From contig JBBTCT010000024.1 in the NCBI GenBank assembly GCA_038060895.1, positions 64,001 to 128,000 on the forward strand: a stretch of 64,000 nucleotides of DNA, given 5' to 3'. This document shows, one piece after another, positions 22,622-30,434 of the stretch (its first letter is position 1; every line of letters begins with the position of its first letter). Position numbers and translations under genes: made by a program. The notes below the pieces were generated by a model. That model worked only from the letters and a program-made list of their open reading frames with translations, made no database searches and was not told the DNA's origin. The stretch is from Planctomycetota bacterium (lineage in GTDB: Bacteria; Planctomycetota; MHYJ01; WSZJ01).

Positions 22622-22820
22622 AATCGACGGCTGCCGAAGTGCGGCAGTGGTGCTGGAGCGGCGCGGATCTGCCGCAGAAGGCGCCGGGCGTCGCCGTGAC
22701 GACAAATCGGGAGCTAGTGCGGGAAATCTGCGGTCAACGGATTGATTTCGAGAATTCGACATGTCTACGATGCCCCGTTCAAACTTCACCAGCCTTCTCC
22801 CCCAGCTTCGGAGCACCGTC

Positions 22821-23357
22821 ATGACAGCGGATACTTCGCTTGTTCCGGTCGAGCGAGTGGAGCGACGGATCCTTCTTCTGCGTGGAGGGCGGGTCATCCT
22901 CGACGCGGATCTGGCGGATCTCTATGGCGTCCCAACGAAACGCCTCAATGAGCAGGCCAAGCGAAACCACTCGAGATTTCCAGAGGACTTCATGTTCCGA
23001 CTGACTCGGAGGGAAGCGTCCGTCGTGAACCGGTCGCAAATTGCGACCGGTTCCCGGAAACATCGCGATCCCCGCTTCAGGCCGTTCGCCTTCACGGAGC
23101 ACGGGGCCATCATGGCGGCGAACGTCCTGAACAGCCCTCAAGCCGTCGCCGCCAGCGTGCTCGTCGTGCGGGCCTTCGTGCGTCTGCGGCACCTCACCGA
23201 GTCTCACCGCGAAATCGCGGCCAAGCTTCAGGAACTCGAGAAACGCGTCGGCGGGCACGGTGCAGCCATCCAGGAAATCGTCTCTGCAATCCGGCGGCTG
23301 ATGGATCCGCCGCGTGAACGACGGCGGAAGCGGATCGGCTTTCATCTGAAGCGCTGA
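22821..23357 (+). CDS. ORF6N (KilA-N-like) DNA-binding protein
   Basis: RVILDADLADLYGVPTKRLNEQAKRN..RFPEDFMFRL..AFTEHGAIMAANVLNS..RIGF. Confidence 0.92.
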   Translation: MTADTSLVPVERVERRILLLRGGRVILDADLADLYGVPTKRLNEQAKRNHSRFPEDFMFRLTRREASVVNRSQIATGSRKHRDPRFRPFAFTEHGAIMAANVLNSPQAVAASVLVVRAFVRLRHLTESHREIAAKLQELEKRVGGHGAAIQEIVSAIRRLMDPPRERRRKRIGFHLKR

Positions 23358-23506
23358 CGGCAAATTGACATTCCAATCTGCGCAGGGGTTGCACTTCGCC
23401 GCCGTCTGACGCACCCCGGGTGGATCGGGGGAGTCCCAGGCGGGTATTCAACCCCGACCCCCGCCGTTCCTATCCCGTTACTCATCGGCACTCTTGCCAT
23501 GGCGAA

Positions 23507-24310
23507 TCACTTCTTCTCCGGTTCCTCCGTAGCTTTCGTCTTCAACGCCGGCTTTGCGTCAGTCCCGAACGCCTTCAGAACCCTCGCGAATTTCCGCTCG
23601 CCGATCACACTGGCTCGTTTGAGGATCCCGCCGTTGGACGTCCATTTGCCCTCCCACGGTAAGTCCTTGTGGAAGATCATCGGGTTTCCGGCCTTGTCCA
23701 GTCGGCGGCGGAAGGGAATCTTGTCGCTCATCCAGAAAGTCTCCACCCGCTTCTTCTGGTCGCTGCCGGGGGTGTGTTCGAGCGTCCACTTCTCGCACTG
23801 GAATTTCTCCTCGCCCACCGTGACCTCTTCCTTCGCCGGAGAAACCGTGCAGGTGGCCCGCTCGGAAGCGCTCAGCCTGCGGTCTTCTTCCGGCGGAATC
23901 TTGGGTCCGGCAACCGGATTTCCTCCCCCCTGCGAGACCCCCATAATATGGCGTTCCGTCACTCGCAGCTTCCGGCCGACTTCGCCTGGCTTACCTGCGT
24001 ATCCCAACAGGACAAGGTTGGATGCCTTGGAAACCCCGAGCAACTGGACTTCTGCTTCGCGCTTTCCCGTGGCCTTGTCAATCCACGCGACGGACCTCTC
24101 AATCCAGACCACGTTTTTTTCCACCTCGGTGCACGCAAGCCGGGAAGTGACGACGTCCATGGCGTCGGGATCGGCGTACTCAACCCAGTCACCCGCTTTG
24201 AGCGCGGCAACGTCGTATTCGTAAAACGCCGTCTCTTCGACTTCGGTTTGTTGAGCTGAAGCAGTGGCACCGGTAAGGAGCACCACCGCGAAGCAGGTGA
24301 CAGACTTCAT
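23507..24310 (-). CDS. Secreted hypothetical protein
   Basis: AAGGAG RBS, signal peptide, beta-rich (KAGDWVEY..EEVTVGEEKFQC..ETFWMSDKIP). Confidence 0.7.
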   Translation of the reverse strand: MKSVTCFAVVLLTGATASAQQTEVEETAFYEYDVAALKAGDWVEYADPDAMDVVTSRLACTEVEKNVVWIERSVAWIDKATGKREAEVQLLGVSKASNLVLLGYAGKPGEVGRKLRVTERHIMGVSQGGGNPVAGPKIPPEEDRRLSASERATCTVSPAKEEVTVGEEKFQCEKWTLEHTPGSDQKKRVETFWMSDKIPFRRRLDKAGNPMIFHKDLPWEGKWTSNGGILKRASVIGERKFARVLKAFGTDAKPALKTKATEEPEKK

Positions 24311-24343
24311 GACGTGGCTCCTTTGATTGAACTCGGCTGGCTG

Positions 24344-25435
24344 CTACCAGCCCTTCATCAGTTCTTCCCGCCCCTTCGCGTCGTACACCTCCGGGAACTT
24401 CGCTCCCTTCTTCCCCGTCACCTTTCCCAGCGCTTCGTGCACCTTCTTCGCCAGGGTCACCGCCATCGGCTTCATCCACTTGTCCTCGGACGGCTCAGGG
24501 TACGCGTCCACCAGCGCCTTCCTCGCCGTTTCGCTCGCCCCCTTGTTCCTCTGCGCGATCTCCACGATCGCGTCCACGCTGATCCCCGTGAGCCCGTTGT
24601 TCGGCGCCGCTTTCGTCCCGGGCGCGAGGGCCGCAATCGAGGCCTCCCCTCCGCACTTGCCCAGCGCCTTCGCCGAGCGGCAGCGCACGACGTTCGGATT
24701 GCGCGACTCGCCGGGGTCCTTGAGAAGCACCTCGAGAGCGGGCGTCGCCTTCGGATCGGGGGCCGCGGAGAGGGCGTCGAGGACCTCGTATCGGAATGCG
24801 TCATTGGCCACGGCCAGCAGCTCCGTCGCGCGGGCGGCGATCATTGCGGGGCCCTGCTTCACGACGATGCGAAGCGCGAGCGTCTTCACGACGATGTCCA
24901 CGTCGCCAAGAAGTTTTTCCGACTTCTCCGCAGTCGGCGCCGCGTGCAGCTCCGCGGCCTTTTTCTCGGCTTCGCGCCACGCCGCAAGCCCCGCGCCTCC
25001 TTTGCCGCCCTTCGCGCTCTCGACGTTCGCCACGAAATCGTCGACCTCGCGCTCGGCCGCGCCCGTCACCTGAAGCGTCGCGGCGTCGAGGAACAGCAGC
25101 CCCGGCCAGCCGGTCACGCCGCAGCGGATCGAGATGCGTTCGGCCATGCGGTCGGCGTCGCTTCCCGTGAAATCGCGGTAGACCCAGACCCACTCGACCT
25201 TGTCGTAGACCGGCTTGAGTGCCGCGTTCGGGAGCAACTGCTCCTCAAGGACGACGCAGTGGGGTCAGTAGGTCTTGGTGAAGTAGAGGAACACGGGCTT
25301 GCCGGACTTTGAAGCGGCCTCCAGCGCGGCGCCGAAGTCCTTGGTCCAGGGAGCGCCGGGGGGAGGGTTGGACGAATCCGCGAGGGCCACGGAGGCGGCA
25401 ACAGCGAACACAAAAACGTATGGAGCGGCAATCAA
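24344..25435 (-). CDS. Probable selenoprotein: secreted thioredoxin-like (UPHC) + HEAT repeat protein, in-frame TGA at 25265-25267
   Basis: GGAGG + TTG start at 25435; signal peptide; WTKDFGAALEAASKSGKPVFLYFTKTY-TGA-PHC continues in frame into track ORF 24344..25237; hairpin downstream of the UGA. Confidence 0.85.
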
Positions 25436-25478
25436 GGGCGCCTCCGCAAATAAAAACAGCCGCTGGCAAAGCGGCCGT

Positions 25479-25534
25479 TTTCACTTTTCGTTTTTCGTTT
25501 TTACTTTTTCGTTTTTCGTTTCGTTGTTGCCGTT
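25479..25534. repeat. TTTTTCG heptamer array (single arm)
   Basis: Ends in CGTTTCGTTGTTGCCGTT, identical to the right arm of 13634..13784. Confidence 0.8.
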
Positions 25535-25539
25535 CTTCC

Positions 25540-26898
25540 CTACTTCCCCGTGCTGGTCGTCCCGCCATTGGGATCCACCGGCGGCAGATCAAATAACGCC
25601 GCCTTCGCCGTAAACACCATGTTGTAGTCGTTCCTCTGCACCGCGCTCTCCAGCGCGACCTCGAACGACGGCGCCATCATCCCGTTGAACTTCTCCGTCC
25701 CGTTGATCTTGATGATCACCGGCTTCTTGAAATCCACCAGCTGCTCGTTCAGCCACACCGTGACCTTCGGGTTGAATTTCGTGAACTTCACGTCCACCAC
25801 GTTGTCCTTGATCTCTCCTTCAATCCGGCACCGCTCGCCGGCCGTCCCGGGAATCTCCTCGATGCTCAGCCAGTAGCTGTAAGGCCGGTACTTGCGCGTC
25901 GGCATCCAGATCAGCTGCCTCGGGTACGCATTCCTCGTCTTCGCCAGCATCCATTCGACGATCGGACCCAGGCTGTCCGGCGGATAGCCGTGCCCGATCC
26001 CCTGGTACTCGTGGTACTCGTACGTGTACCCCCACTCCTTGAACTTCGCGTCCGCGTACCGGCTCCCGTGCACCGGGACCTGCGGGTCGTCGGGGCAGTT
26101 ATAGAAGCGCACCCAGGTGTTCTTGAAGTTCTCGAGGCAGCCTGGCTCGTGGTACAGCACGCGCCCGTTTTCGTACCGCACGATCGGCGCCGAAGCGCAC
26201 GGCCCGACCGCCGCGAACAGGTCCGGGTGGTGTCCGCCCATCCCCCACGAGCCATACCCGCCCATCGAGTGCCCCGCGACGTAAATGCGGTTCGTGTCGA
26301 TAGGGTACGTGGCCTTCATCTCGTCGATGAGCATGTGCAGCCATTCCTGCTCGTTGTCCTTGTTCCATTCGCCTTCCGTCAGCGGCTCCAGCACCCACGG
26401 CGCGACCTGGATGCACTTCGAATTCGCCCCCGCCCACTGCCCCGCCGCGCCTCCCGCGTCCGCCGAGTTCTTGCCGCCTCCGTGCAGCGCGATGAACAGC
26501 GGCACCGGCCGGCCCTGCTTGGCTTTCCCTTCGCCGGCGACCAGGTAGTGGCCCTTGTGGTCCTTCTTCCACTGGTCGTCCGTGAAGAGCCGTTCGGGGA
26601 GCACCGTGTAGTTGTTGCTCTTCCCCTCGGACTTCTTCCCGTTCTGCATGATGACGTTGAACACGGTCGGGAGCTGTTTGGCGATCTGGTCGCCGGAAAT
26701 CTCCAGCGCCTTGATTTCGGTCATGATCGCCGCCCGGTCCTTCGCCTCGGCCTTCACATACTTCTGCAGCAGCTCGGCGAAGGCCTTCTTTTCCTTGGGG
26801 CCCCACGGCTTCTTGGCGGGCGGCGGATCGCCGGCAAGGACGGTGGCAAACAGCGCCGCGAAGGCACAGAGCGGGAAGACGAATCGAAGGGCTTTCAC
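25540..26898 (-). CDS. Secreted alpha/beta hydrolase (carboxylesterase-like)
   Basis: GTG start VKALRFVF signal; ALHGGG, NRIYVAGHSMGG (GxSxG), DDPQV, GIGH. The track's longer N-terminus is a shadow frame of the cyclase gene. Confidence 0.85.
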   Translation of the reverse strand: MKALRFVFPLCAFAALFATVLAGDPPPAKKPWGPKEKKAFAELLQKYVKAEAKDRAAIMTEIKALEISGDQIAKQLPTVFNVIMQNGKKSEGKSNNYTVLPERLFTDDQWKKDHKGHYLVAGEGKAKQGRPVPLFIALHGGGKNSADAGGAAGQWAGANSKCIQVAPWVLEPLTEGEWNKDNEQEWLHMLIDEMKATYPIDTNRIYVAGHSMGGYGSWGMGGHHPDLFAAVGPCASAPIVRYENGRVLYHEPGCLENFKNTWVRFYNCPDDPQVPVHGSRYADAKFKEWGYTYEYHEYQGIGHGYPPDSLGPIVEWMLAKTRNAYPRQLIWMPTRKYRPYSYWLSIEEIPGTAGERCRIEGEIKDNVVDVKFTKFNPKVTVWLNEQLVDFKKPVIIKINGTEKFNGMMAPSFEVALESAVQRNDYNMVFTAKAALFDLPPVDPNGGTTSTGK

Positions 26899-26983: not shown

Positions 26984-29900
26984 TCAGTGCAAATACGGCC
27001 CGAAAGCCACTTTCCTTCCCGCCGCCCCTTCGCTCGCCGCCAGCCGATCTCCCTCCAGCGCAGCCTTCTTTGCGCCTGCGCCGTCTCCCGAGGCCGCCTT
27101 GACTTCCGCTTCGGCAAGGAGGAACTCGAGCGTGAGGCGAAGCGCCATCTGGGCCGGCTTCGCGGCCCGGGCCTGTTCGAGCAGCGCAGGAGCGTCGGAG
27201 GCCCGCGCTTTCGCTGCAACGCGCGCTCGGACGGTGAGCGCGCGGAACCGGGCTGAGGCGGACTTCGAAGCGGCGAGGGCGCGTGCGCCCTCCGTGTCGA
27301 GGCGGATGGAGGCGAGCGCCGCGGCGATGTCGTCGTCCGCGGCGGCGAGCGGTGCGAGCAGGGCGATCGCTTCGTCGAGTCGCCCCTCGAACGCCAGCGT
27401 TTCACCCAGCAGCTGCCGGCGGAGCCCGCCGGTGCCGGCCATCTTGATCTCGATCTGTATGGCGATCGATTCCTCCGCGGCCGCGCGCGCCAGCGCCGCT
27501 TCGCCGCGATCCAGCCGCGCCTCCGCGAGCCTCTCGAGAATGACCGAGACGCCGAGGCGGTCGCCGGTCGCGCGGCGGAGCTCGAGGGCGCGCTCGAGCA
27601 CGTCGCAGGCCTGCCGCGCCTGGCCGAGCTTGCAGCGGAACATCCCTTCGTTGCTGAGGAGCATGGCTTCGCCCCACTTGTCGGCGATGTCGCGGCGGAT
27701 CGCGAGCGCTTCTTCCGTCGTCGCGAACGCCTTGTCGGGGTGGCCGTCCTGGAACTCGACCGATGCCATGTTCGTGAGCACCATCGCGATGCGCCAGCGG
27801 TCCCCGGCTTCGCGGAAAACTTCGAGCGCCGCTTCGTACTCGACGCGCGCCTCGGGGAGCCTGTTCTGGTGCATGAAAAGAATGCCGAGCCCGTTGCGGA
27901 CGTTTGCAGCGCCGTGGACGTCTTCGGCTTCGGCGTAGAGGGCCTGCGCCCGCCTGTACGCCTCAGCCGCGAAAGTCGTTTCGGATTTCCGGTCGCGCAC
28001 GCGCGCCTCGGTGCTGATCGCGTTGGCCAGGTCGATCTTCGCCGCGCGGCCGCCGCCCGCGTCGGCCTGGGCCTGGGCCCGTTTCTGCAGCTCGGCCGCG
28101 TCCCGGAGGCATTCGTCGAAGCGCGACAGGCGGTAGAACAGGTGGCTGCGGTCCCGAAGGACATGCGTGTGAAGAAACGCGGCCTTCGGGTCGGCGAGGA
28201 TCGCTTCGTCGATCTCGAGCGCGCGCGCGAATTCGCCGCGCCGCTCGTGGATCGCGCCGATCTGGCGGCGGACGCGGAAGCGCAGGACTTCGGTGAGGTT
28301 GGTGGATTCGAGAAGCGACTCCGCTTCCGCGAGAGCCTGTTCGCCGAGACCGAGGATGTTGAGCGCCTTGATGGCGCTGAGCGCGGCCTCGGGCGAGCCG
28401 TCGATGCGCTGCGCCTCGCGCGCGGAGGCGAGGGCCTCCTCGTAGGCGGAGAATTCCAGCGCTTCCTCGGCGGCGCGCGCCCAGTGTTTCGAAGCGGCCT
28501 CGAGCCTCAGGGCCGCTTCGCAGTGGCCCGCAAGGAGGATGAGCACGCGGCGGCCGAGGTGGGGGATGAGGGGCTCGAGGATTTCGGCGGCGCGTCCGTG
28601 GAGGCGCTGGCGTTCTTTCTTGGTGAGGAGCGAGTACGCGGCGTCGCGCAGGGGGCTCTGGCGGAAGTGGAATTCCTCGTCGAGGGGGAGGAAGGACGAG
28701 CCGGCTCGCTCGACGAGCATGCGGCGGCCGGCCTGTTCGAGGGCGGGGCCGACGTCGTGGCCGGCGAGCGTGCCGGTGGCGGCCGACCAGAAGGCGCGGC
28801 CGAAGATGCTTCCGCATTTCAGCGCTTCGCGCGCGTCCGCGGAAACCGCGTCGATGCGCGAGACGAGCAGCCCGCGCAGCCCGTCGGGGAGCCGGTCGGG
28901 GCGCGTTGCAAAGCGTGCCGGGTTTCCCTCCAGGAATCCCTCCTGCCGGAGGAATCGAACGAGCTCCTCCATGTACAGCGGGTTCCCCGCCGACTGGTCG
29001 ACCAGGAACGACGACAGCTCCGGGTCGAGGTCGCGCTGCAGCAACTCGCGAGCGAGCTGCGCTGCTTCCGCCGCCGGCAGTTCCACCAGTTTCACGCGCT
29101 CGAATCCTCCCGGGATCCGCGTGGCGGGCCGCGACGTCGCGAGGATCACCACGCGCTCGTCGCGCAGCTTCGCCGCGAGATGGTCGAGCAGCGCGAACGT
29201 CGCCGGGTCCGCCCAGTGCAGGTCCTCGAGGCACAGCAGCACCGGCGCGCGCCGCGCCAGCCCGCGGATCCATCGCTCCCACGCCTCCAGCGTCTCCGTC
29301 CGCGCGCGGGTCGCGTCGCCGGGAGCCGGCCCCGTCCCCGCCGCCTGCCCCATCGACCGCGTCATCAGGTGCGCGAAATTTGAACGCTCTGCCGCTCCCG
29401 AAACCGTCAGCGCGAGGACTTCCGACACGAAGGCCCTCGTCGAAGCCGCCTCCGCCGCCGCGTCGCCCCCCGGCGACTGCGACGCCGCCCGGCACGCGCT
29501 CCGCACGATCTCCGCGAACGGCCCGAGCGGAAGCGGGGAGCCTTCCTGCGCGTGGCCCAGCCCGATCCACGTCTCCGGGTTCACGCGGCGCGCGTGGTCG
29601 CGCGCCTCCCCGGTCAGTCGCGTCTTGCCGACGCCAGAGTCCCCCTCGAGCAGCAGGAACGCGCTCTTCGCCCCCGTGACCGCGTCCTTGATCCGCTGGA
29701 GTTCCGTCACGCGCCCGATGAGCCGCGCGGGGCCGACGTCGCCGGTCGAAGGGACGATGGTGCCGGTCTCCCGGATCGCCTCGGAGACGCCGACGGAATC
29801 CTGACGCCCGCGCAGGTGCATCTCCCTCTCGGGGCCGAATTCGACGCGGTAGTTCGTGGCGCGGGCGACCGCCCGGGAAGCGAGGACCTCCCCAGGCTGC

Positions 29901-30319
29901 GCTTCCGACTGCAGCCGTTGCGCGACGTTGACGGCGTCGCCCATGGCCGTCGGCCGGTCTCCGCCCACGGTCCCCCAGAGCACCTCGCCCGTGTTGACAC
30001 CGACCCGGATCTTCAGGTCGAGCGATCGCTGCGCGTTGAAAAGCTCCAGCTCGCGCTTCATGGAGAGAGCCGCCCGCACCGCCCGAAGCGGATCATCCTC
30101 GTGCGCGGTCGGCGCGCCGAAAACTCCCATCACGGTGTCGCCGACGAACTTGTCCACCGTCCCGCCGCGAGCCTCGATCACGCGCCGGAATCGCGTGAAC
30201 ACGGCGTCCACGACCTCGGCCGCGGATTCGGCGGCGTCCTCAGGGTCCGGCGAGGAGACGTCGCCGATGCCGACGATGCCTGTGAAAAGGACGGTGACGA
30301 CGCGGCGTTCTTCGGCCAT
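26984..30319 (-). CDS. Adenylate/guanylate cyclase-AAA ATPase-TPR (STAND) protein
   Basis: VDKFVGD..GAPTAHEDDP..GDAVNVAQRL; Walker A GDSGVGKT; LEDLHWAD; GNPLY; TPR C-terminus. Confidence 0.92.
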   Translation of the reverse strand: MAEERRVVTVLFTGIVGIGDVSSPDPEDAAESAAEVVDAVFTRFRRVIEARGGTVDKFVGDTVMGVFGAPTAHEDDPLRAVRAALSMKRELELFNAQRSLDLKIRVGVNTGEVLWGTVGGDRPTAMGDAVNVAQRLQSEAQPGEVLASRAVARATNYRVEFGPEREMHLRGRQDSVGVSEAIRETGTIVPSTGDVGPARLIGRVTELQRIKDAVTGAKSAFLLLEGDSGVGKTRLTGEARDHARRVNPETWIGLGHAQEGSPLPLGPFAEIVRSACRAASQSPGGDAAAEAASTRAFVSEVLALTVSGAAERSNFAHLMTRSMGQAAGTGPAPGDATRARTETLEAWERWIRGLARRAPVLLCLEDLHWADPATFALLDHLAAKLRDERVVILATSRPATRIPGGFERVKLVELPAAEAAQLARELLQRDLDPELSSFLVDQSAGNPLYMEELVRFLRQEGFLEGNPARFATRPDRLPDGLRGLLVSRIDAVSADAREALKCGSIFGRAFWSAATGTLAGHDVGPALEQAGRRMLVERAGSSFLPLDEEFHFRQSPLRDAAYSLLTKKERQRLHGRAAEILEPLIPHLGRRVLILLAGHCEAALRLEAASKHWARAAEEALEFSAYEEALASAREAQRIDGSPEAALSAIKALNILGLGEQALAEAESLLESTNLTEVLRFRVRRQIGAIHERRGEFARALEIDEAILADPKAAFLHTHVLRDRSHLFYRLSRFDECLRDAAELQKRAQAQADAGGGRAAKIDLANAISTEARVRDRKSETTFAAEAYRRAQALYAEAEDVHGAANVRNGLGILFMHQNRLPEARVEYEAALEVFREAGDRWRIAMVLTNMASVEFQDGHPDKAFATTEEALAIRRDIADKWGEAMLLSNEGMFRCKLGQARQACDVLERALELRRATGDRLGVSVILERLAEARLDRGEAALARAAAEESIAIQIEIKMAGTGGLRRQLLGETLAFEGRLDEAIALLAPLAAADDDIAAALASIRLDTEGARALAASKSASARFRALTVRARVAAKARASDAPALLEQARAAKPAQMALRLTLEFLLAEAEVKAASGDGAGAKKAALEGDRLAASEGAAGRKVAFGPYLH

Positions 30320-30434
30320 AGAGGCGGGAGAGCATAGACGCACGATCGGCAAAGGACAAAGGGGAAGCGGAGATCGGCGGCGACTTTCGGCAAATCTCAA
30401 ATCCGGTGTCGGCCCGTCTTTTTCAAAATCCCTT

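Follow-up and report, generated by a model that had tools for sequence, protein, structure and literature searches.

A probable selenocysteine-containing thioredoxin(UxxC)–HEAT protein with a predicted signal peptide, encoded across an in-frame UGA in a Planctomycetota genome

The window analyzed here is a stretch of 64,000 nucleotides (nt) from a Planctomycetota bacterium (assembly GCA_038060895.1, contig JBBTCT010000024.1, positions 64,001 to 128,000). Its minus strand carries, at 24344–25435, what is very probably one gene for an exported selenoprotein, in which a thioredoxin domain with selenocysteine (Sec, U) in a UxxC motif is fused to HEAT repeats and Sec is inserted at codon 57. When TGA is read as U, the frame runs from TTG (25435–25433) to TAG (24346–24344) and gives 363 residues with a single TGA. 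A sequence-only reading of this DNA had proposed that the listed open reading frame (ORF) starts in mid-domain, that a ribosome-binding site and a TTG start lie upstream in the same frame, that the only TGA occupies the first Cys position of a CxxC motif (TY-U-PHC), and that standard gene callers would cut the 363-residue frame short. All of these points were borne out by the following features, numbered from the first letter of the window:

24344–25435, minus strand: complete coding sequence (CDS) of the predicted Thioredoxin_7 (Trx7)–HEAT selenoprotein, 363 codons followed by TAG, with Sec assigned to the one UGA (translation with TGA = U; whole-length orthologues in 28 genomes)
25441–25445, minus strand: Shine–Dalgarno-like GGAGG, 5 nt 5' of the TTG start (direct reading of the sequence)
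25433–25435, minus strand: TTG start codon; 56 codons precede the UGA, the same number as in the ATG-started orthologue L021 of the same genus
25379–25435, minus strand: predicted signal peptide, residues 1–19, ending in VALA before DSS (read by eye in the protein and in aligned orthologues)
25004–25360, minus strand: Thioredoxin_7-type thioredoxin fold, residues 26–144 (PF13899 on residues 30–117, E 3.3e-10, 40.4 bits against a cut-off of 27)
25265–25267, minus strand: UGA codon 57, read as Sec, the nucleophilic residue that opens the redox motif U-P-H-C, directly before helix 58–67 (context FTKTY-U-PHC; AlphaFold2 model)
25256–25258, minus strand: Cys60 codon TGC, the resolving position of UxxC (at least 90% conserved in alignment A3)
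25228–25248, minus strand: element resembling a selenocysteine insertion sequence (SECIS), with stem GGAGC/GCUCC (25244–25240 and 25235–25231), loop AGUU (25239–25236), bulged A23 (25245), and G22:C38 plus two weaker pairs below (alignment of 28 orthologues)
25103–25105, minus strand: codon of the invariant Pro111, just before strand 112–117, at the place of the thioredoxin cis-Pro loop (alignment; model secondary structure)
24347–24994, minus strand: HEAT/alpha-solenoid domain, residues 148–363 (PF13646, HEAT_2, 34.5 bits against 27.7, and PF03130, HEAT_PBS, 26.3 against 20.9, at about residues 207–278)
24344–25237, minus strand: ORF of 297 amino acids (aa) from gene calling with translation table 11, whose first residues, MLPNAALK, fall within the thioredoxin fold (P0002 of public protein collections)

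The read-through protein was searched against an even sample of 401 genomes of the phylum, and a match at E ≤ 1e-15 was obtained in 29 of them; within the same order, five of 12 genomes gave a match at E ≤ 1e-10. In 28 of the 29 matched genomes, the full-length orthologue contains exactly one in-frame stop, which is always TGA. Codon extraction places this TGA at the codon aligned to residue 57 in all 28 full-length orthologues, with the consensus FTK[TK][YH]-U-P[HSA]C-V. These orthologues share 29–79% identity with the window protein, and conservation at the protein level extends to either side of the TGA. The 29th genome (G001) carries a divergent copy without a stop, with Asn at column 57 and without the second Cys. 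Reads with TGC or TGT at this codon had been named beforehand as counter-evidence; instead, DNA contigs of two other studies cross the TGA without a single difference (X3 record 5, 24853–25301; X5 record 12, 25045–25399).

The sequence-only reading had also suggested looking for Cys or TGA at this column in homologues, and both were found. In a collection of 5.8 billion proteins, eight homologues were present besides the protein's own stump, seven of which begin just after the redox motif. P0005, the only full-length one among the eight, reads TKTYCPHC, as do three further full-length Cys forms (P0011, P0012, and P0013) that were retrieved with the N-terminal domain only. A DNA motif search back-translated with Cys, which is able to detect Cys forms only, gave 49 fitting stretches in genome contigs, including one relative (L051) with TGC at the Sec column. 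A profile search of 1.84 billion cluster representatives yielded 6118 matches at E ≤ 0.001, 464 at E ≤ 1e-10, and 104 at E ≤ 1e-30. The best 150 representatives were re-aligned locally, and 118 of them scored above the local threshold. In 67 of these 118, one of the residues 1–3 aligns to profile positions 61–83, right behind the motif, suggesting that they are Sec forms truncated by gene calling. Another 21 are N-terminally complete, with C..C at the motif in 14 and the motif lost in seven, and 30 are other fragments or long multi-HEAT proteins. The Sec form is therefore found in 28 of 28 sampled genomes with a full-length copy, and about 67 inferred Sec forms stand against 14 Cys forms among the re-aligned representatives. 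Neither Trp, which had been listed as a finding that would speak against Sec, nor Gly occurs at column 57 in the TGA-free forms compared; those without Cys (seven of the 21 complete representatives and the G001 copy) have lost the motif.

Some relatives depart from the common layout. The G001 copy (L024, G001:C60; N..S) and seven representatives (P0045, P0055, P0089, P0094, P0109, P0116, and P0119) have lost both redox residues and kept the fold and the HEAT repeats, and they appear to be redox-dead relatives. The Cys forms P0019, P0031, and P0048 are 535–580 aa long, with an extra 170–220 residues ahead of the thioredoxin domain, and the orthologues L048 (G326) and L049 (G099) have an insertion of about 70–90 residues between the thioredoxin and HEAT domains. 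X3 records 6–8 are short contig pieces that match about 50 nt around the UGA (25254–25303) with 2–4 differences and are flanked by unrelated sequence; they probably come from relatives in the same community that carry the conserved FTKTY-U-PHC stretch.

Bacterial SECIS elements follow rules of spacing and loop sequence, and these served as a yardstick for the hairpin behind the UGA. The earlier claim of a hairpin GGAGC-AGUU-GCUCC 21–34 nt after the UGA proved correct at 25244–25231 (GGAGC-AGTT-GCTCC in the DNA), which corresponds to positions 24–37 when the U of UGA is numbered 1, and the hairpin is conserved with covariation over the orthologues. RNAalifold on the 28 orthologues keeps exactly the 5-base-pair (bp) apical stem, and pairing is present in 95% of its 140 pair cells. 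Pair 25:36 is GC in 15 orthologues, AU in seven, CG in three, and GU in one, and other or unpaired in two. In 500 column shuffles, the values observed for pairing, for the count of double-change cells, and for covariation were never attained, and all six slid registers that were tried scored lower than the hairpin register. Since pair 25:36 connects the first base of an E/K/Q codon with the synonymous third base of a Leu codon, protein selection alone is an insufficient explanation. The loop is AGUU in 24 of the 28 orthologues.

The sequence-only reading further held that the lower stem could be extended, and this claim stands in part. G22:C38 is present in all 28 orthologues, next to a bulged A23 that is likewise invariant, and below this pair 21:39 is paired in 17 and 20:40 in 19 of the 28; the longer stem 13–17/43–47 of the window sequence, on the other hand, shows little pairing in the other orthologues. 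Translated, the hairpin reads E-[EK]-Q-L-L-P, a peptide that is near-fixed in the Sec forms, whereas the Cys forms vary (EKGLLS, ERGVLR, EQGVLP, ESEMLS, and DAMLS). The hairpin thus has the appearance of an RNA element that fixes the peptide E-E/K-Q-L-L-P, which drifts once Cys replaces Sec.

The four sel genes for which a genome search had been advised are all present in the assembly (G000; 47 contigs, 86.5% complete), each over its cut-off. The selA gene (541 bits) has no internal stop, and neither has selB (344 bits), whose C-terminal part is present. The tRNA-Sec scores 71.7 bits and is called by ARAGORN as tRNA-SeC with anticodon tca. The selD gene (364 bits; G000:C2:48628–49548, minus strand, L001) contains one in-frame TGA, in SSCAG-U-ASKLGP. 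We take the CAG-U-ASK site to be the known Sec/Cys loop of selD, and selD is itself a selenoprotein gene. TGA ends 1250 of the 2308 open frames of at least 500 codons and is the commonest stop in the genome. Because of this count and the lack of internal stops in selA and selB, TGA is an ordinary stop here, and a reading by genetic code 4 or code 25 is excluded.

The proposed fusion of a thioredoxin-like N-terminus to HEAT repeats was supported by the domain searches listed above. The AlphaFold2 model, built on the 29-row alignment A3, has a mean predicted local distance difference test score (pLDDT) of 94.4 and a predicted template modeling score (pTM) of 0.89, and on the strength of these values it indicates that the Trx7 and HEAT parts would form one rigid two-domain body. 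With VIA-align, the N-terminal domain of the model was closest to DsbH (2ju5; Z 12.2, root-mean-square deviation (RMSD) 2.2 Å over 115 residues), followed by the DsbD-gamma-like 3f9u (Z 12.1), AGR3 (3ph9, Z 10.8), and DsbD gamma (1vrs_D, Z 9.8). DsbH 2ju5 is also the best solved relative by sequence (phmmer E 5.4e-05). Residues 148–363 are modeled as paired helices throughout, with the conserved polar loop motifs S-x-N-P-N-V-x-R (244–251) and N-G-x-T (280–283). They match alphaRep proteins (Z 13–14) and the CpcE/F lyase 5n3u_B (Z 12.7), in a range (Z 12.7–13.9) that is common for helical repeats. VIA-align matched each domain separately and gave no match over both; likewise, Foldseek matched nothing in the PDB at E ≤ 0.001, and the two domains occur together in no solved chain.

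The protein is probably exported, as suggested by the N-termini of the family. Of 27 aligned orthologues, 26 have an initial M and [RKA..], a hydrophobic stretch after these, and then a small-x-small site (A-x-[AG]), followed by the conserved (S)ETPPxGPPW. In the window copy, the N-terminus MIAAPYVFVFAVAASVALA, followed by DSS, has a length that fits a signal peptide and an n-region with no basic residue. No lipobox Cys is present in the aligned N-termini.

A homologue of DsbD was found in the same genome at G000:C14:123050–124990 (plus strand; L052:865–2805), with a DsbD_TM score of 113 bits. Its table-11 ORF ends at a TGA in FLEFTAFS-U-TNC, and the frame runs about 90 residues past this TGA, which sits exactly at the redox motif of the gamma domain; the gene can thus be read as a Sec-type DsbD. 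A search with the read-through DsbD found matches at E ≤ 1e-30 in 227 of the 401 sampled genomes. A hand count of the in-frame stops among the 148 DsbD matches listed gave one TGA in 101, none in 44, one TAG in two, and several in one; the TGA was assigned to the redox column in the genome of the window alone.

Three more thioredoxin-like genes with TGA at the first redox position were observed in this genome, at C1:203676–204572 (minus strand, YAP-U-GPC), C22:368875–369786 (plus strand, FAP-U-PFC), and C1:199053–199346 (plus strand, ADW-U-NAC). The first two have a hydrophobic N-terminus within their alignments. At a locus of the same genus (L025, G005:C29), three thioredoxin-like genes lie in tandem in three frames, each with its own signal peptide and SY[SA]P-U-[GP]PC; their UGA codons are at locus nt 567, 1591, and 3011, and each is followed about 20 nt on by a GGAG...CUCC-type hairpin. 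When the 60 nt next to the UGA were folded by minimum free energy for the genes of both genomes, which is descriptive only, each showed a hairpin beginning 15–24 nt from the UGA (about 19–21 nt for the three of the window's genome).

Expression of the gene may be envisaged as follows. At UGA codon 57, SelB with Sec-tRNA(Sec) would bind the hairpin within the CDS, which begins 20 nt downstream, and the ribosome would insert Sec without termination. Removal of the signal peptide would leave a DsbH/DsbD-gamma-like Thioredoxin_7 domain (U57-P-H-C60) packed rigidly against the HEAT solenoid. In thioredoxin-fold enzymes, the first residue of the motif is the attacking one. Here, the selenolate, exposed where helix 1 begins, would attack a client disulfide or another oxidized sulfur or selenium center, and Cys60 would resolve the mixed Se–S intermediate, giving an internal selenenylsulfide. 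Re-reduction might then come from the cytoplasm via the genome's DsbD, through its gamma domain (FS-U-TNC), while the HEAT domain may dock or hold the client or a partner.

Several other accounts of the UGA were considered. If it were a true stop, the locus would encode a 56-residue leader peptide and a separate HEAT-only protein from the internal TTG at 25237, with the thioredoxin-like part as a relic. Table-11 gene calling does give this split, and so do public collections (P0002, P0003, and others). Yet the stretch ahead of the UGA (56 codons) shows protein-level conservation across 28 genomes, with identities as low as about 30%, and in the Cys forms it runs on unbroken into the remainder of the protein; the split would cut the thioredoxin fold between strand 1 and helix 1, and a relic would keep neither TGA at one column in 28 of 28 orthologues nor a covarying hairpin behind it. 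We therefore regard this as very improbable. Only marginally better placed is the idea that the UGA is decoded otherwise than as Sec, namely as Trp or Gly by a variant code, by near-cognate read-through, or as Cys via a Sec-like tRNA. UGA-C, which is invariant here, is a leaky termination context. Such decoding is nevertheless hard to reconcile with the use of TGA as the commonest stop of long frames, with selA and selB free of internal TGA, with a column that is Cys and never Trp or Gly in motif-bearing TGA-free forms, and with a canonical tRNA-Sec (tca) alongside selA, selB, and selD. The idea that the TGA is a mistake of sequencing or assembly, or a recent nonsense mutation that has turned the gene into a pseudogene, has nothing in its favor beyond the presence of a stop codon. 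Because the same codon recurs in 28 genomes of different families and in the contigs of two independent studies, these can be excluded for all practical purposes.

The reading of codon 57 as Sec in an exported protein remains the most probable one by a wide measure, and a number of observations weigh against it or detract from it. The single-sequence fold of the 65-nt stretch is unremarkable (z -1.27, equaled or surpassed by 24 of 200 shuffles). The hairpin is short (5 bp plus G22:C38), and the 28 sequences are mutually related; double changes occur at only two of the five apical pairs, and this number of pairs with a double change was attained by 127 of 500 shuffles. Four of the 28 orthologues (L044, L046, L047, and L049) are without the consensus hairpin in register and have shifted alternatives as judged by eye. 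The signal peptide of the window copy is weak, being without a basic residue and starting from TTG, and the DNA control for the Cys form is a single sequence (L051). RNA-library contigs cover parts of the gene (24528–24833 and 25303–25497 in X8; 24681–24980 in X12) and none spans the UGA; moreover, DNA may be present in such libraries, and the contigs are no proof of transcription. A comparison of the flanking ORFs (at least 90 aa, within 1.5 kb) at the 28 loci showed no neighbor conserved beyond close relatives, the most widespread family occurring in four of the 28 loci, all close relatives; hence, no client or partner is indicated. Finally, selenium in the protein is predicted from sequence and comparison.

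As for function, the protein may be a periplasmic (extracytoplasmic) thiol–disulfide exchanger that is probably re-reduced by the genome's Sec-type DsbD. We lean, by a narrow preference, towards a reductase or isomerase rather than an oxidase, because the fold neighbors belong to the reductive DsbD/DsbH branch, a DsbD is present, and neither DsbB nor VKOR was found; in an 86.5%-complete assembly, the last result does not imply absence, which limits its weight. The same selenoprotein might work in the opposite direction, as a periplasmic DsbA-like oxidase or isomerase that passes its Se–S bond to client thiols and receives no feed from DsbD. This alternative, which we judge less likely but still to be taken seriously, gains from the P-H dipeptide between the redox residues of 26 of the 28 orthologues. 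P-H is the dipeptide of the strongly oxidizing DsbA motif, and it therefore argues against the reductase direction. AGR2, a member of the same Pfam family, has CPHS, and selenium catalysts speed disulfide exchange and isomerization; both facts count for the oxidase as well. It is countered by the structural neighbors, which are reductive proteins of the DsbH and DsbD-gamma type and not DsbA, by the lack of an inserted helical domain, and by the finding of DsbD and of no re-oxidant of the DsbB or VKOR kind. The samples with the sequence are labeled groundwater or aquifer, which has little bearing on the choice between oxidase and reductase.

A broader picture can be sketched, which we offer as a speculation that is rather unlikely to hold in full: many members of the phylum might run an extracytoplasmic selenium relay from Sec-DsbD to a set of exported Sec-thioredoxin-7 proteins, in which the Trx7–HEAT solenoid would select one client and Sec would be kept because this client kinetically requires a relay from selenolate to selenenylsulfide. 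The Sec-type DsbD and the three further thioredoxin-like TGA genes make a selenium-dependent periplasmic thiol–disulfide system directly testable. Since the architecture is overwhelmingly in the Sec form, it also lends itself well to the question of why Sec is retained in preference to Cys.

UxxC thioredoxin-fold proteins are the most typical class of bacterial selenoproteins. The present protein is a new architecture within this well-known class and does not belong to the Trx7/PDZ, TsoB, or DsbH families, since no NCBIfam model attains its cut-off and a 2026 catalogue of 119 prokaryotic selenoprotein families and subfamilies (its Table 1) has no entry with Thioredoxin_7 plus HEAT (PMC13188914). 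In the accessible part of a 2022 review, the sole entry under pfam13899 is a PDZ protein (PMC9312934). The text passages and 12 of the 14 supplementary files of a 2016 study of Planctomycetes include candidates named 'thiol-disulfide isomerase-like thioredoxin' (S9 table) and leave HEAT unmentioned (PMC4807772). No description of a Trx–HEAT selenoprotein was found in the literature on selenoproteins with Planctomycetes, Thioredoxin_7, HEAT repeat, or DsbD.

Compared by description, the catalogued UxxC thioredoxin-fold selenoproteins share with our protein a Sec that is first in a CxxC-type motif, Cys orthologues, and a SECIS just 3' of the UGA, and PF13098 is reached weakly (27.9 bits against 27); however, our protein fits PF13899 best (40.4 bits) and has in addition a HEAT solenoid of 215 residues. 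The Trx7/PDZ (seleno)protein NF041199 likewise has its redox-motif Sec in a Thioredoxin_7 domain that is joined to a protein- or peptide-binding module, but it is CxxU in the catalogue, with Sec at the other redox position, and has PDZ instead of HEAT. The match to this model (22.7 bits over residues 29–71, the N-terminal 43 residues, against a cut-off of 300) falls far below membership. DsbH of Chlamydia (2ju5, NF043050) and DsbD gamma (1vrs, 1uc7, 2fwg; 3f9u) are, among solved structures, nearest in fold to the N-terminal domain and are all extracytoplasmic; they contain Cys and not Sec, are single domains or part of DsbD, and are without HEAT repeats. TsoB (NF045694) is the best NCBIfam match through its DsbD-gamma-like C-terminal part (profile positions 441–549), but it differs in architecture and in motif (catalogued as UxxxxU). 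Whole-protein scores are under the cut-offs for all three models: 22 bits against 190 for DsbH NF043050, 14.6 against 330 for DsbD NF001419, and 24.6 against 805 for TsoB. The C-terminal 215 residues have the fold and PF13646/PF03130 in common with HEAT proteins of the PBS-lyase type (alphaRep, CpcE/CpcF 5n3u), none of which is fused to a thioredoxin fold, and a lyase function is not implied.

The family is solid, spans the phylum, and is mis-annotated in most cases; the fusion is new and the chemistry ordinary. Standard gene calling splits or truncates the gene in all 28 genomes with a full-length copy (28 of the 401 searched) and in most metagenomic cluster representatives. Consequently, public databases hold a HEAT-only stump and miss the active-site selenocysteine. 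One homologue, a 297-aa stump from a Planctomycetota metagenome-assembled genome, is named 'hypothetical protein' at its source.

On the upstream side, 25543–26898 (minus strand) encodes an exported esterase or prolyl-oligopeptidase-like alpha/beta hydrolase of about 452 aa with a GTG start at 26898; a mechanically listed 874-aa ORF (to 28164) overruns this gene into the region of the next. Between it and the selenoprotein gene lies one more feature:

25459–25475, unstranded (the scan reports plus): GC-rich hairpin with flanking T-runs, in which the minus-strand stem is followed by TGTTTTTATTT

This hairpin is probably the terminator of the esterase-like gene. A promoter scan of 23400–25700 found no sigma-70-like site. 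Further out are a 1138-aa adenylate/guanylate cyclase–AAA_16–TPR protein (26987–30400, minus strand) and, on the other side, an ORF6N-domain protein (22761–23354, plus strand). None of these window neighbors, nor the 267-aa ORF that follows the selenoprotein gene, suggests a partner. That ORF (23507–24310, minus strand) has a signal-peptide-like N-terminus and no Pfam match, and it is not a conserved neighbor in other genomes. It starts 33 nt past the selenoprotein stop, behind AAGGAG, and is probably co-transcribed with the selenoprotein gene.

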